64,000 bases of DNA from assembly GCA_030295235.1 (NCBI GenBank), contig AP026164.1, forward strand, positions 1,178,001 through 1,242,000. Reading direction: 5' to 3'. The DNA is from Fistulifera solaris (lineage: Eukaryota). The position numbers and the translations under genes were made by a program. The notes under the pieces are model-generated. The model did no database searches. It was not told where the DNA came from and saw only the letters and a list, made by a program, of their open reading frames with translations. Positions 35,839-51,176 of the stretch are shown here, one piece after another (the stretch's first letter is position 1; each line of letters opens with the position of its first letter).

Positions 35839-36398
35839 GTTACTTTTGTTCACAACAAGGAGAGAAGTTTTTCGGGTTACTTGTGGTAAAAAGTGAGAAC
35901 AGACAATGAGAATGTCGATTGCGTGTGTGTTCTTTTTGTTGCGACGATCGTTTCGGTTCATTTTTTCGGAAGTCGGAACAACTTCCTCCTCGACATCCGG
36001 AGGAAGATATGAGTACCGGTACTGAGATTGTATTGTTTATGACTACAGTCACGCAATCCATGAAGACCAGTAATTGACGGTTAAATTTAAAATATATTTA
36101 TAGACCCTCACAAACAATAAACATTGAACGGAAGCCCTGGTGCGAGAACAAACTCCGAAACATATAGCTAAATTAAGAAGAACCGGTTATCGAATGATAG
36201 GCACGAAACTTGTTAACCGGAAAGGTCAGAAGATAATGCGTGTCGCGTATTGATCGACATGTATGCATTGTTGTCAAGCTTTCATGATAATATCTTACAG
36301 CTTTTATCCCCAAAAACAATCCGCTCATTCAAATGAAGGTTCTAAGGAATTTACCAAGGACCAACAAATTCGAGGGAATCTTTGACGTACAAAGGAAA

Positions 36399-37388
36399 AT
36401 GAATTCTTCTTTCCTATCTCTCTTGGTTTTAGCTATGTCGTCGCTAGCGTTTTTCGTTCTGAACGTATATCAACTGAATACATGGAATACTTCATCTCGG
36501 GTTACAACATTATCACAACAAATTGAAATGAATAGGACCATTCATCATGTGCCAATCCAAATGCGGCCAAAAACACGGGGCAAACTGGTTCAACCCGGAG
36601 ATTTCATTTACTACAGAGATGACAAGCGATGGGACTCGGCGCCCATTGTAATCGAATCCCACAAGTTGGTCTTCTTTACCATTCCCAAGGTCGGCTGCAC
36701 GGTTTGGAAACAATTATTTCGTCGCATGGAAGGATACTCCGACTGGCAGGATCAAGACGGCGAGCGCCTGTTGCCGCACAACCCAAACGAGAATGGTTTG
36801 AAATATCTGTACGATTATTCCATTGAAAAAGCCAACGAGATCATGACCAGTCCGAAGTGGACCAAGGCCATGATGGTGCGCGAACCGAAGCAGCGATTTC
36901 TGAGTGCCTTTCTCGATAAAGCAGTCAGCAACGATCATGCTCACATCAGGAACAAATGCTGTCAGTTTATGGAAGATGCACAGCAATGCGTTGACTCGGC
37001 GCAAACAGCATCTGGATTTTTGGAGTTGATCAAAGCATGTGAGGATGATCATTGGAGAGCTCAGTACGATCGAGTGGACTATAAATATTGGCCTTACATT
37101 GACATGGTGTTGCATGTGGAGACGGCGGAGGAGGATGCAAAGAGACTTTTACAGAAAATCGGAGCATGGGATGAGTTTGGTCAAACAGGATGGTCGTCAG
37201 ATCATCAGAGTCCCATATTTGGCAACGCTGCTAAAAGTGCCGGCGATCACGCAACTTGGTCGCAGTGGCAGGTATGGAAATGGTACACGCCCGAGGTGGA
37301 ACGTCAAGTGGAAGCATTTTACCGAGCAGATTACGAGAATCCACTCTTCAATTTCACCACATACGAATGCTTCACCTGTGTTAAATAA
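36399..37388 (+). CDS. Golgi type-II carbohydrate sulfotransferase (Sulfotransfer_2), paralog of 22456-23650
   Basis: N-terminal TM, WDSAPIVIE, TIPKVGCTVWKQLF, NGLKYLYD, VREPKQRFLSAFLDK, HWRAQ, YRADY. Confidence 0.9.
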   Translation: MNSSFLSLLVLAMSSLAFFVLNVYQLNTWNTSSRVTTLSQQIEMNRTIHHVPIQMRPKTRGKLVQPGDFIYYRDDKRWDSAPIVIESHKLVFFTIPKVGCTVWKQLFRRMEGYSDWQDQDGERLLPHNPNENGLKYLYDYSIEKANEIMTSPKWTKAMMVREPKQRFLSAFLDKAVSNDHAHIRNKCCQFMEDAQQCVDSAQTASGFLELIKACEDDHWRAQYDRVDYKYWPYIDMVLHVETAEEDAKRLLQKIGAWDEFGQTGWSSDHQSPIFGNAAKSAGDHATWSQWQVWKWYTPEVERQVEAFYRADYENPLFNFTTYECFTCVK

Positions 37389-37495
37389 TTTCTTAGAGTG
37401 AGTCATTTGCTGTTTCGATCCACTTCACCTTCTTTGGGTCTAGGTCTTAGACTATGTACTAATTCGAAAACGGAGTGCCGCAAAATTAAATAGTC

Positions 37496-37505
37496 TATAT
37501 ATATA
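37496..37505 (+). promoter_or_regulatory. TATA-like element upstream of the permuted tRNA
   Basis: TATATATATA ending about 20 nt before the leader/CAA motif (37526-37528) and 33 nt before the tRNA 3' half. Confidence 0.6.
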
Positions 37506-37537
37506 CATTAAGATCACCAATTATTCAACTCGCATGT

Positions 37538-37617
37538 TTCGAATGGTCACGTGTTCGACTCACGTTTGGCGCTTAACTAAAGCGTCAATAGCTCAGTGGT
37601 AGAGCGTTCGATTGCAG
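37538..37617 (+). tRNA. trnC-GCA: Circularly permuted tRNA-Cys(GCA): 3' half 37538-37573, 8-nt spacer, 5' half 37582-37617
   Basis: Reordered halves fold into a complete cloverleaf: acceptor GCGTCAA/TTGGCGC, D-stem GCTC/GAGC, anticodon stem TTCGA/TCGAA with GCA, T-stem ACGTG/CACGT with TTCGACT loop, U73 discriminator. Confidence 0.92.
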
Positions 37618-37624
37618 AGGGATG

Positions 37625-37630
37625 TTTTTT
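37625..37630 (+). terminator. Pol III oligo-dT terminator
   Basis: T6 run beginning 8 nt after tRNA position 37, followed by a second T5 run. Confidence 0.7.
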
Positions 37631-37785
37631 GCTTTTTCTACATGTTTATGCCAGTTTCTGTGATACACGGATTGGCGATAGGCGATGCCTTTGATCTTCT
37701 CTTTTGATCGAAGTCGAAAAACCTAATACCGGAGTACCAAGTACTAGGGCATCCATTCCAAACAAAAAAAAATGCCTTGACGACC

Positions 37786-39148
37786 ATGAGATTGAATCGA
37801 CTTTTCCTTGTCATTCTTGTGGTCATTGTTGATTTAGTCGCTTATTTCTACATCAGAGCCTCCTTTGGAATCGGTGGTGATGTTTCAGAATCAGCGCTTG
37901 TCAAAAAGACAGAAAAGCAAACCTTGCCGTCAATAGACGACTCCTCAACAAGCTTGGAAAGAGGAGTCCATGAAAACGCCGTTCGCTCTAGTACCGGATC
38001 TGTGAGGAAATTTAAAGAGCCATTGCTATCTCATAAGGTCACCTATGCCCCAACGGGTGGGAAGCTTCCAGAGGACGGGTTTGACACGTACGACGAAACT
38101 GCATGGAATAAACTAGATAATGGAACATGTCTATTTAAAGATGACGAAGAAGATCAAGCTTTTGAATGGCAAAGGACCTCTCCGTACGCAATACTGTTGG
38201 GCACAATGAAAGGCGGGACACATGCTCTGTCCGAATACTTGTGGCAGCATCCGCTGATAGCCGCACCCAAGAAAGTAGAGAAAAATGGCCATGAGCTCCA
38301 TTTCTTCGACAGCCGCAGTTTTGAAAGGGGGGAATTAGGAATTCCGCGAAAACCCAATCAACTGTCTTACGCTATGAAAGTGCATAGAATGTACCCGGAT
38401 TTCTTTTACACAAAAGAAAGTATGTATACGATTCATGATTCACCACGATACCTGGTGTGGAGTGACCGAATTCCTGAAGCAATCCTGTGTGTGACCCCTT
38501 GGTCGAAGCTTATCGCCGTTTTAAGGGATCCAGTTGAACGTGTGATATCGCACTATCGCTTTCAAGATCAAGGTAGGTTTCATTGTTTTCTCATGTTTCG
38601 CCTGTAGTGTTCTGGAGCGCATATCAACTCAACTGTTGCTAGCTCGATTTCGAAAACACATACCTATGGTAGATTGGGAGACGTGGATACAGGATGACAT
38701 TGAGCGTTTGAAACGAGCGGGAGTACTTCAGGATTGGAATCAAGTAAGTTTTGAGGAGTTTTCGGGCTCGGGAGCTGAACTAATTGCATGGAAGAAATAT
38801 CTTCGATCGCCTACTACTCAGATGATTGTTGGTCGCGGGCTTTACTCCCTACAAATTGAGCATTATCTTGCGGCTATGGACAAAGCGGGGAAACCTCGGT
38901 CAGATTTATTGGTCCTTCGGTCAGAGGAACTTCGGGACGAAACGCAACTGGTCTACAATCGAGTTATTGACTTTCTTAACCTTCCTCAACATGTTCTCAG
39001 CGATACCGAAGCAAAACATAAGACTCAGAAGAGCTCTACTCCGATTCCAAGTGACTTGCGCAAACAGCTGGAAGAGCTATACAGGCCTTACAACCGGCGA
39101 CTAAATAAACTTTTGGACTGGAACAACGTCTGGGATTACAACAATTAA
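37786..39148 (+). CDS. Type-II membrane sulfotransferase, HS3ST/NST-like (2 exons)
   Basis: LGTMKGGTHAL (5'-PSB), ELHFFD, LRDPVERVISHY (3'-PB), GRGLY..QI, LYRPYNRRL. Intron 38573-38642. Confidence 0.88.
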
Positions 39149-49526: not shown

Positions 49527-51176
49527 ATGACTTCTATGGCCTATAATAGCGCTGCTGGGCTTGCAGGAATGCTCAAGGAAGGAACCCGCCATTTCAGTCA
49601 AGAAGACGACCCTACGAATTCGTCTGTTGTCCTTCGCAACATTTCAGCTTGTCTTGAACTCTCACGAATGCTCAGCACATCGCTTGGTCCCCAAGGTCGC
49701 TGTAAGCTTGTCGTCAATCACCTGGAAAAGATAATGGTTACATCCGATTGTGCTGCAATTCTCAAAGAAGTTGAGGTCGAACATCCTGCTGCGAAATTGT
49801 TGGCTTCTGCTTGCAGAAAGCAAGAGGAGGAATGTGGAGACAATACCAATTTTGTTCTTGCTTTCGCTGGTGAACTTCTGTGGCAAACTGCTCAACTCAT
49901 CGCTAAGATGACTTGGCAACCTGCCCCCGAGATCTTGGCAGGGTACCGCCGTGCTTTGGATTTGTGCGAAAGCAAATTCTTTCCTACTTTGGTCTGTGAC
50001 AGTGTCAACAATTTCACTCAGAAAGATCAACTACTGCAACTTCTTCGTCCTGTGCTTGCTTCGAAGCAGTACGGAAGCGAGGGTGTACTGGCGCCCCTTG
50101 TCGTAGAAGCCTGCTTGCGCGTCATGAAAAATGGTCGTGTCTCTGTTGAATCCGTCCGTACGGTCAAGATTCCGGGTGCATCCGTCTCTCAGTCCGTCTT
50201 GTTAGACGGATATGCCGCAAAAAGTGGTGTGGAAACAGTTGTGACGTCGGTTGAAAAGGCAAAGATTGCCGTATTTGCATCGGGCTTTGAGGCTTCTTCG
50301 ACTGAAGCCAAGGGCACGGTCTTGATGAAGACCGCGGACGACTTGAAAAACTACAACAAATCTGAAGAAGCGAAAATGGAAGAAATTGTGCGCTCTATTG
50401 TGGAGTCCGGCGTCAAGATTGTTGTCACTGGAGGAAATCTTTCGGACATGGCCTTGCACTTCCTCGATCGTCACCAAGTCATGTGTCTCCGCATCGGTAG
50501 CAAGTGGGAATTGCGACGACTCTGTCAAGCGGTTGGTGCCACTGCGTTGGTTCGTTTGGGACCTCCAACACCAGATGAAATGGGTTACTGTGATTCGGCA
50601 AGGGTTCAAGAAATGGGAGGAAAGCCCGTCACGATCTTCACAAATGCTGAAAGCAAGTTGGCTACGATCGTCCTCCGAGCGAGTACTACTTCGGTATTGA
50701 ACGATCTCGAGCGAGCGGTTGATGACGGAGTACAAGCTGTAGCTCAAGCGGCAAAGGATGGACGTTTTGTGTACGGCGGTGGCGCTGTCGAGATGGCGCT
50801 ATCGGTTGCCTTGCAACAAGAAGCCGAGAAAGTACCAGGATTGGAACAGTATGCGCTGGCAGCTTTCGGTAAAGCCCTCGAAGTCATTCCTCGCACGCTG
50901 GCAGAGAATGCTGGGTGGGACTCCACTCGCGTCTTGGCGGATCTCCAGAGTTCTCACGCTTCGGTCACAGAAGGCACCATTTGTGATGTCGGTGTAGACA
51001 TTGATCGGTTAGGAGATGACCAAGGTAGCGGAACCACTAGTATGAAGGAGAAAGCGATTTACGACCTGCTAAATACCAAGATGAGTGCGCTTCGTCAGGC
51101 AGTCGATGCGACGGTGACAATTCTAAAAGTCGATCAGATTATCATGAGTAAGCCTAGCGGCGGCCCTAAAATGTAA
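49527..51176 (+). CDS. CCT8: T-complex protein 1 subunit theta (chaperonin CCT8)
   Basis: TSLGPQGRCKLVVNHLEK, EVEHPAAK, GDNTN, TEAKGTVL, SKWELRRLC, LKVDQIIMSKPSGGPK. Confidence 0.96.
   Translation: MTSMAYNSAAGLAGMLKEGTRHFSQEDDPTNSSVVLRNISACLELSRMLSTSLGPQGRCKLVVNHLEKIMVTSDCAAILKEVEVEHPAAKLLASACRKQEEECGDNTNFVLAFAGELLWQTAQLIAKMTWQPAPEILAGYRRALDLCESKFFPTLVCDSVNNFTQKDQLLQLLRPVLASKQYGSEGVLAPLVVEACLRVMKNGRVSVESVRTVKIPGASVSQSVLLDGYAAKSGVETVVTSVEKAKIAVFASGFEASSTEAKGTVLMKTADDLKNYNKSEEAKMEEIVRSIVESGVKIVVTGGNLSDMALHFLDRHQVMCLRIGSKWELRRLCQAVGATALVRLGPPTPDEMGYCDSARVQEMGGKPVTIFTNAESKLATIVLRASTTSVLNDLERAVDDGVQAVAQAAKDGRFVYGGGAVEMALSVALQQEAEKVPGLEQYALAAFGKALEVIPRTLAENAGWDSTRVLADLQSSHASVTEGTICDVGVDIDRLGDDQGSGTTSMKEKAIYDLLNTKMSALRQAVDATVTILKVDQIIMSKPSGGPKM

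Follow-up and report, generated by a model that had tools for sequence, protein, structure and literature searches.

A circularly permuted, very probably functional tRNA-Cys(GCA) gene in a diatom close to Fistulifera solaris

A 64,000-nt stretch of contig AP026164.1 (positions 1,178,001 to 1,242,000 of the forward strand) was analysed over its full length. It is called the window below, and all coordinates are counted from its first letter. The window possesses a tRNA-Cys(GCA) locus in which the tRNA's 3' half precedes the 5' half. With high confidence, this locus is interpreted as a functional circularly permuted nuclear tRNA-Cys(GCA) gene of type II, that is with the junction between tRNA positions 37 and 38, in a raphid pennate diatom close to Fistulifera solaris.

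The 3' half (tRNA positions 38-73) occupies 37538..37573 and is located upstream of its 5' counterpart (positions 1-37) at 37582..37617, both on the + strand, with a spacer of 8 nt between them. The 3' half carries the 3' strand of the anticodon stem, the variable loop TGGTC, the T arm, the 3' strand of the acceptor stem and U73, and holds the B box. The 5' half carries the acceptor 5' strand, the D arm with the A box, the 5' strand of the anticodon stem, U33, the anticodon GCA and G37. When the halves were swapped in silico by their coordinates, ARAGORN reported a 72-nt tRNA-Cys(gca) with a 7-bp acceptor stem including one G-U pair, perfect D, anticodon and T stems, a variable loop of 5 nt and T at position 73. 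Direct reading of the sequence identified U8, A14, G18G19, U33, G53-T54-T55-C56 and U73, all of which are consensus or identity positions of tRNAs. U73 is the cysteine identity base, and with the anticodon GCA it completes the tRNA-Cys identity of the locus. The intervening sequence TAACTAAA (37574..37581, + strand) is placed as the loop closing the acceptor stem. It does not encode CCA, possesses no T4 run and lies with its 8 nt inside the range of 1 to 74 bp published for intervening sequences (PMC3978253), as is usual for type II permuted genes. All coordinates and letters given in a preliminary description, which had been made from the sequence alone, agreed with the sequence at 37400-37760. 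Its central claim of a circularly permuted tRNA-Cys(GCA) gene with a 37/38 junction was borne out by the acceptance of the swapped halves by ARAGORN and by the covariance-model match given below.

In native order, ARAGORN found no tRNA gene in the whole 64 kb and no Rfam family reached its gathering score in the window. The expectation that standard scanners would miss the gene held for these two programs. The Rfam tRNA model (RF00005) gave 18.5 bits, below its gathering score of 29, with a convincing match to the 5' half only, and the locus lacks the contiguous cloverleaf of a conventional nuclear tRNA gene. A permutation-aware search, as suggested in the preliminary description, was run on the window. 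Its candidates are stretches in which a T arm is followed by an acceptor 3' strand, then by a spacer of 1-80 nt and an acceptor 5' strand; the swapped pieces are submitted to ARAGORN, and 37/38 junctions only are detected. From 103 candidates, one match was obtained and it was this locus, while 300 dinucleotide-preserving shuffles of the window gave no match. Each tRNA half is present once in the window, and no relics of lost outer halves were detected above shuffles within 300 nt on either side of the locus. The permuted locus is real and beyond chance.

Related loci were searched with a 28-mer covering positions 8 to 36, with the D arm, the 5' strand of the anticodon stem and the anticodon, a word that would find conventional and permuted genes alike. 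It gave 85 matches in 84 loci of a metagenome collection, and none in one genome each of 185,579 prokaryotic species or in the viral contigs of IMG/VR; owing to this absence the environmental loci are presumably eukaryotic. Together with the window, the 86 matches comprised 54 permuted, 21 conventional and 11 other cases, the last being 4 with inserts in the T arm, 3 decayed permuted-like copies, 2 permuted genes cut by a contig end and 2 conventional genes mismatched or cut. After removal of duplicates and of three copies cut at contig ends, 42 distinct permuted loci remained (41 environmental loci and the window), representing 20 different mature sequences. After swapping, all 42 were read by ARAGORN as tRNA-Cys(gca) of 72 nt, and in native order it did not find the Cys gene at any permuted locus. 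Position 73 is invariably T in the 42 permuted as well as in all the 21 conventional loci. The closest permuted relative of the window is a type represented by 7 loci (L009 type; L numbers denote environmental loci), which differs at 6 of 72 positions, and the closest conventional relative (L001 type) differs at 10 positions. Open reading frames (ORFs) in the 400-nt flanks of the metagenome loci were mostly reverse reads of tRNAs or low-complexity stretches. The environmental loci suggest that the permuted layout is common in marine eukaryotes.

For the 42 aligned loci, base pairing was counted against the structure in its permuted order. Pairing reaches 99.7% in the acceptor stem and 99.5% in the T stem, figures to which the pairing thresholds of the classifier contribute, and changes on both sides of a pair were observed in 7 of 7 acceptor pairs and in 4 of 5 T-stem pairs. 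The covariation score of the whole structure is 0.387, compared with a mean of 0.129 in shuffles; none of the 500 shuffles reached it, and when the pairing partners were slid the score was at most 0.101. A covariance model built from the 41 environmental loci, with the window left out, found one match in the 64 kb (37522-37633), scoring 104.1 bits with an E value of about 1e-29, while the next match scored 9.7 bits. For the layout to persist in 20 mature sequences while changes in the stems are compensated, selection must act on the joined molecule, and the permuted order is conserved under such selection in the 41 environmental loci. The anatomy of the gene, its standing above chance and its conservation with covariation in many loci are direct observations, and from the sequences the gene is very probably functional.

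Outside the mature halves, the leader is not conserved in the 42 loci save for four columns. They correspond to a 4-mer ending 2 nt before the junction, mostly GCAA, GCAG, GCGA or GTAA, which faces U32-U33-G34-C35. In this register all four pairs are formed in 32 of the 42 loci and three of four in another 7, the window included, giving 91.7% pairing of the helix over the family, while in other registers the 4-mer pairs fully in just 0-5 of the 42 loci. Its variation is one-sided and compatible with wobble pairing. With the conserved register, two leader bases and U38 form a 3-nt bulge, and facing it is a second bulge of 3 nt that comprises A36, G37 and the first trailer base, which is A in 28 of 42 loci; both predicted cleavage sites fall after the second bulge base. 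In the window, the leader (37526..37537, + strand) ends in ...CAACTCGCATGT. Its GCAT (37532-37535, + strand) is the strand of the central helix opposite U32-C35, and the following GT (37536-37537, + strand) builds with U38 the bulge holding the predicted 3' cleavage site. The first base of the trailer AGGGATG (37618..37624, + strand) joins A36 and G37 in the bulge with the predicted 5' cleavage site. The pairing of leader GCA with U33-C35 between two 3-nt bulges, proposed in the preliminary description, is thus upheld by a register conserved in 32 of the 42 loci.

The same description had also proposed an outer helix between the leader and trailer strands CAACTC (37526-37531, + strand) and GGGATG (37619-37624, + strand), written there as CA.CTC and GGG.TG, and this part failed, as the pairing is no better than chance in the window and across the family. 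In a fixed register, the outer helix is 53% paired over the family. With free register the mean best run is 4.57 pairs, against 4.35 in shuffles and 4.31 in cross-locus pairings. As family runs barely exceed these controls, the outer helix was rejected as a general feature. With the outer helix at chance level, the motif is a relaxed hBH and not a fuller bulge-helix-bulge (BHB); in the window it consists of the anticodon stem (h), the 3-nt bulge of GT and U38 (B) and the central helix with three of four pairs (H). This hBH form has been reported for permuted genes of green algae and nucleomorphs, and it suits the eukaryotic endonuclease, an enzyme that recognises the mature domain and the anticodon-intron pair as well (PMC3978253, section 8). 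A few loci do show an outer helix. It is non-random in L003/L054 and in L048 (at most 0.5% of shuffles equal) and weaker in L036 (7.5%). L003/L054, L048/L053 and L036 possess a leader/trailer helix of 7-9 bp and so a fuller BHB. L003/L054 are without the central 4-mer and possess the longest spacers, which are 28 nt long, G+C-rich and self-complementary. Given these outer helices and the missing 4-mer of L003/L054, at least two junction designs coexist in the family.

Signals for transcription were found on both sides of the gene. A run of at least four T starts 3-14 nt past G37 in all 42 loci, with a median of 6 and a value of 8 in the window, and no internal T4 was found between the start of the 3' half and G37 in any of them. 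Spacers in the 42 loci are 5-28 nt long with a median of 7. A TATA[AT][AT] hexamer is present within 70 nt upstream in 20 of the 42 permuted loci. In the window, the TATA-like element TATATATATA (37496..37505, + strand), 33-42 nt upstream of the 3' half, is a probable upstream promoter for RNA polymerase III, and the T6 run at 37625..37630 (+ strand) is the probable terminator for the same polymerase. TATA-like upstream elements have been described for the permuted tRNA genes of Cyanidioschyzon merolae, where inversion of the A and B boxes is thought to disable the internal promoter and the upstream element has been proposed as the driver (PMC3978253, section 5).

The anatomy of the locus equals that of published type II genes in every testable respect. 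The maturation of such genes was worked out in C. merolae and partly confirmed in green algae, and for this reason the pathway of C. merolae is taken as the mechanism. All steps of maturation described here are extrapolated from that experimentally shown pathway, and a role of the product in translation is likewise inferred. RNA polymerase III would start downstream of the TATA-like element (37496-37505) and stop at the T6 run (37625-37630), giving a transcript in the order leader, 3' half, 8-nt spacer, 5' half and trailer. The transcript is expected to fold as a cloverleaf, with the spacer closing the acceptor stem and with the helix of leader GCA(U) and U(32)33-C35, flanked by the two 3-nt bulges (hBH), extending the anticodon stem. 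The tRNA splicing endonuclease would cut at 37617|37618, after G37, and at 37537|37538, before U38, and tRNA ligase would then join G37 to U38 into a circle of 80 nt. Homologues of the Trl1-type ligase are said to occur in diatoms in the available text of PMC4090602. RNase P and tRNase Z would open the circle at G1 (37582) and after U73 (37573), by which TAACTAAA would be discarded, and CCA would then be added.

Several points weigh against this interpretation. The window leader GCAT forms three pairs with a U.U opposition at U32, and the pair at the position facing U32 corresponds to the anticodon-intron pair, which matters for 3' cleavage in yeast (PMC3978253, section 8). The full 4-bp central helix is lacking in 10 of the 42 loci. 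The best run of the outer leader/trailer helix in the window is 5 pairs, compared with a shuffled mean of 4.86, and 56% of shuffles equal it. RNAfold on the single pre-tRNA gave z = -1.83, and the minimum-energy structure is without the full cloverleaf. With regard to the family evidence, the D arm, the 5' strand of the anticodon stem and the anticodon are identical by construction of the 28-mer; the classifier set a minimum of 4 pairs out of 5 for the T stem and of 6 out of 7 for the acceptor stem, and the paired percentages are partly built in by it; and the 42 loci are related to one another and do not represent independent events. The environmental loci, which carry no taxon, may include prasinophytes, in which the gene is already known. 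Compensatory changes, however, cannot stem from the search word or from the thresholds of the classifier, and the slightly weaker central helix of the window is the same in kind as that of six other mature types.

The locus could be a non-functional relic, that is a rearranged or half-deleted tandem pair of tRNA-Cys genes which is untranscribed or unable to mature while conventional genes supply tRNA-Cys. The U.U at the anticodon-intron position would fit such decay, decayed permuted-like copies do exist in the environmental set (L023, L059, L027), and some environmental organisms possess conventional tRNA-Cys with the same T arm, the L001 type being 10 positions from the window. A relic, however, would hardly keep four intact stems together with the conserved positions, nor a terminator exactly after the 5' half and none internally. 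The flanks hold no remnants of outer halves, the layout has been kept across 20 mature sequences with compensatory changes, and a model made from the other loci matches this one at 104 bits. A relic is accordingly regarded as improbable. Still less credible, and very improbable in our judgement, is an artefact of assembly by which a tandem of ordinary tRNA-Cys genes was collapsed or mis-joined. Tandem arrays of these genes do occur on some environmental contigs (L011 and L012 on one contig), but the window holds a single copy of each half, placed in unique sequence in the intergenic region of two sulfotransferase ORFs of a diatom, and 41 independently assembled loci share the order with leaders, spacers and trailers of their own. 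Neither the conserved leader 4-mer nor a terminator directly past G37 would come out of a collapsed tandem.

A tRNA-like non-coding RNA acting outside translation, for example a mimic of the YrlA type which binds tRNA enzymes or Ro60, has also to be considered. The best Rfam match over the whole locus (37522-37638) is YrlA, with 34.5 bits and an E value of 7.9e-6, and YrlA RNAs possess the same order of modules according to the available text of a preprint (10.1101/312249). In YrlA (Rfam RF02553), a T arm, a closed acceptor-like stem and a D arm are followed by a closing stem, and the alignment to its model independently recognises the order of T arm, acceptor and D arm in our locus. The sub-threshold match arises because YrlA itself has this order. 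The score, however, is half of the gathering score of 69, and the locus shows nothing equivalent to the long closing stem, the two features that mark a member of RF02553. The pairs of that stem, the part which binds Ro60 in YrlA, are marked as non-standard in the alignment, and no stem between leader and trailer is conserved in the family. Unlike YrlA, the locus keeps a complete anticodon arm with GCA, G37 and the cysteine discriminator U73, and its bulge geometry compatible with cleavage is specific to one register. YrlA is bacterial, while the host here is eukaryotic, and the 28-mer is absent from the 185,579 prokaryotic species genomes and from IMG/VR. A YrlA-like mimic is thus judged to be quite unlikely, though a little less so than an artefact of assembly. 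Where eukaryotic DNA matches YrlA below threshold, this may serve as an inexpensive pointer to permuted tRNA genes; by the same token, such matches may give rise to false Y-RNA calls.

Read as a functional permuted gene, the locus finds its closest counterparts in prasinophytes. A type II permuted tRNA-Cys(GCA) is known in Ostreococcus lucimarinus, O. tauri and Micromonas pusilla, where the intervening sequences measure 26, 38 and 12 bp, respectively (PMC3978253, Table 1, after Maruyama et al. 2010). The two share the isoacceptor, the type II 37/38 junction, the absence of an intron, a junction of the hBH type, an AT-rich upstream region, a T-stretch and a CCA that is not encoded. They differ, in a comparison made through the table of the review, in the host, here a diatom and hence a stramenopile, and in the spacer of 8 nt. 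With C. merolae (Soma et al. 2007; PMC3978253, sections 4-6) the locus would share the pathway through a circular intermediate, which was defined experimentally there and is assumed here. The permuted genes of C. merolae, however, have junctions at four positions (20/21, 37/38, 50/51 and 59/60), often with strict BHB motifs and extra introns, and tRNA-Cys is not among its 11 permuted genes. In ordinary nuclear pre-tRNAs with an intron at 37/38, the cleavage sites are at the same place relative to the mature domain, and the helix between leader and anticodon loop, the position of nucleotide 32 included, corresponds to their anticodon-intron pairing. In a permuted gene the 'intron' amounts to the two free ends of the transcript, so ligation yields a circle and the acceptor end has to be opened afterwards. 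Recent additions to the same kind, as far as the available texts go, are the genes of the trebouxiophyte Auxenochlorella (PMC12633428) and of chlorarachniophyte nucleomorphs (PMC4494063). These genes belong to green-lineage genomes, whereas the host here is a diatom, and according to the same texts they were found because the tRNAscan-SE set was incomplete.

The preliminary description had supposed a possibly undescribed route of tRNA maturation. This does not stand, since the route is already known and the same isoacceptor with the same type of junction occurs in the three prasinophytes (PMC3978253). Its other supposition, that diatoms and other stramenopiles were without a report, agreed with the literature on permuted tRNA, in which none was found, though a mention in Maruyama et al. 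2010 or in supplements of preprints may escape such a search. Among the matches listed for 'permuted tRNA' since 2014, no title pointed to stramenopiles. The literature on diatom aminoacyl-tRNA synthetases and 'missing tRNA genes', to the extent of its available text, held nothing on nuclear tRNA-Cys of diatoms. Soma 2014 counted 34 permuted genes in six algae and one archaeon (PMC3978253). A 2026 review of tRNA genes in photosynthetic organisms names, in its available text, permuted genes only in red algae, O. tauri and B. natans, and there it mentions the diatom P. tricornutum only for its small number of tRNA genes (PMC13578239). Permuted tRNA genes are known in very few genomes, and the hosts named in these and other partly available sources comprise a single red alga, some prasinophytes, a trebouxiophyte, nucleomorphs of chlorarachniophytes and a single archaeon (PMC3978253, PMC4033280, PMC13578239, PMC12633428). 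The mechanism and the isoacceptor are therefore already known, and what is new is the lineage and the apparent environmental breadth. The diatom example carries permuted tRNA genes into the stramenopiles, an ecologically dominant group with good genetic models. According to the available text of PMC8007984, tRNA-Cys(GCA) is the sole cysteine isoacceptor; a genome in which all its genes are permuted would thus look unable to decode cysteine when annotated by tRNAscan-SE or ARAGORN. This gap in annotation can be closed by a simple covariance model.

The sequence around the locus reads as ordinary diatom nuclear DNA. Proteins encoded in the window include a TCP-1 chaperonin, an SPB4-type DEAD-box helicase, a bifunctional aspartokinase-homoserine dehydrogenase, KH-domain proteins and sulfotransferases. 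Two sulfotransferase ORFs of the + strand (36333-37388 and 37777-38607) are separated by 388 bp, and the tRNA locus is situated in this gap. TCP-1 theta (49527-51176) shows 99% identity to a Fistulifera solaris protein, and its next named relatives are raphid pennates, with Mayamaea at 66% followed by Amphora, Seminavis, Epithemia and Nitzschia. The sulfotransferase that immediately precedes the tRNA (36333-37388) shows 91% identity to an F. solaris protein. These two identities, 99% and 91%, confirm the earlier assignment of the host as a probable diatom. Both F. solaris relatives, of the sulfotransferase and of TCP-1, are placed on one contig of 683,746 bp. From the shared contig and the 91% and 99% identities, the window is syntenic with that scaffold without being identical, which is what a homeologous chromosome or a sister strain would show.

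In a subset of the environmental loci, a tRNA-Ala(TGC) gene is situated directly upstream of tRNA-Cys. This was observed for permuted genes (L009, L020, L021, L025, L055, L058, L063 and L070) and for conventional ones (L006, L007, L010, L019, L046 and L069), and in the window itself no tRNA-Ala is present upstream of tRNA-Cys. Only 6-12 nt separate the discriminator base of the tRNA-Ala from the junction in permuted genes, and in conventional genes it is 6-9 nt away from G1. This short gap leaves no room for a separate promoter, which suggests that Ala and Cys are transcribed as a dicistron. Between L063 (permuted) and L006 (conventional), the mature tRNA-Cys are 2 nt apart, differing by a single compensatory base pair, and by their sequences they look like a before-and-after pair for the origin of the permutation. 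With conventional and permuted forms beside the same tRNA-Ala gene, the model of origin by duplication and loss becomes directly testable.

A wider reading, which we regard as tentative and rather unlikely, is that all cytosolic tRNA-Cys comes from permuted genes, both in this diatom and across a wide range of marine eukaryotes including diatoms and perhaps other ochrophytes. The layout would then derive from a single ancient event beside tRNA-Ala(UGC), possibly shared with or transferred from prasinophytes, and where a tRNA-Ala gene precedes the permuted gene at 6-12 nt, the internal promoter of tRNA-Ala would drive both as a dicistron. If this were true, the splicing endonuclease, the ligase and the RNA circle would be obligatory for every cysteine codon in these organisms, the layout would, as a rare genomic character, be relevant to the disputed contribution of green algae to diatom nuclei, and the dicistron would solve the problem of the inverted A and B boxes.

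Other arrangements of tRNA-Cys were also present among the environmental matches. L016, L043 and L078, together with L049 which is cut by a contig end, possess tRNA-Cys in normal order with an insert of about 70 nt inside the T arm, and in L016 and L078 a matching acceptor 3' strand, followed by T and a T-run, is found about 100 nt past G37. These four look like genes with a T-loop intron of the red-algal kind described in the available text of the PlantRNA 2.0 preprint. Some conventional matches (L030, L037, L071, L084 and L029) are placed in dense tRNA arrays in AT-rich DNA, such as Asn-Met-Leu-Lys-Cys, Ala-Ser-Phe-Cys and His-Asp-Cys. The arrays look organellar or giant-virus-like, although the 28-mer is absent from IMG/VR and from the prokaryotic genomes. 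Multiple copies on one contig were observed for permuted genes as well. The contig shared by L011 and L012 carries three permuted tRNA-Cys copies with a spacing of 328 bp within L011, L076 and L077 are permuted copies on one contig, and L023/L059 comprise two decayed permuted-like units about 140 nt apart. When introns are allowed, ARAGORN misreads tandem permuted copies as a 'tRNA-Phe' with an intron of more than 200 nt.

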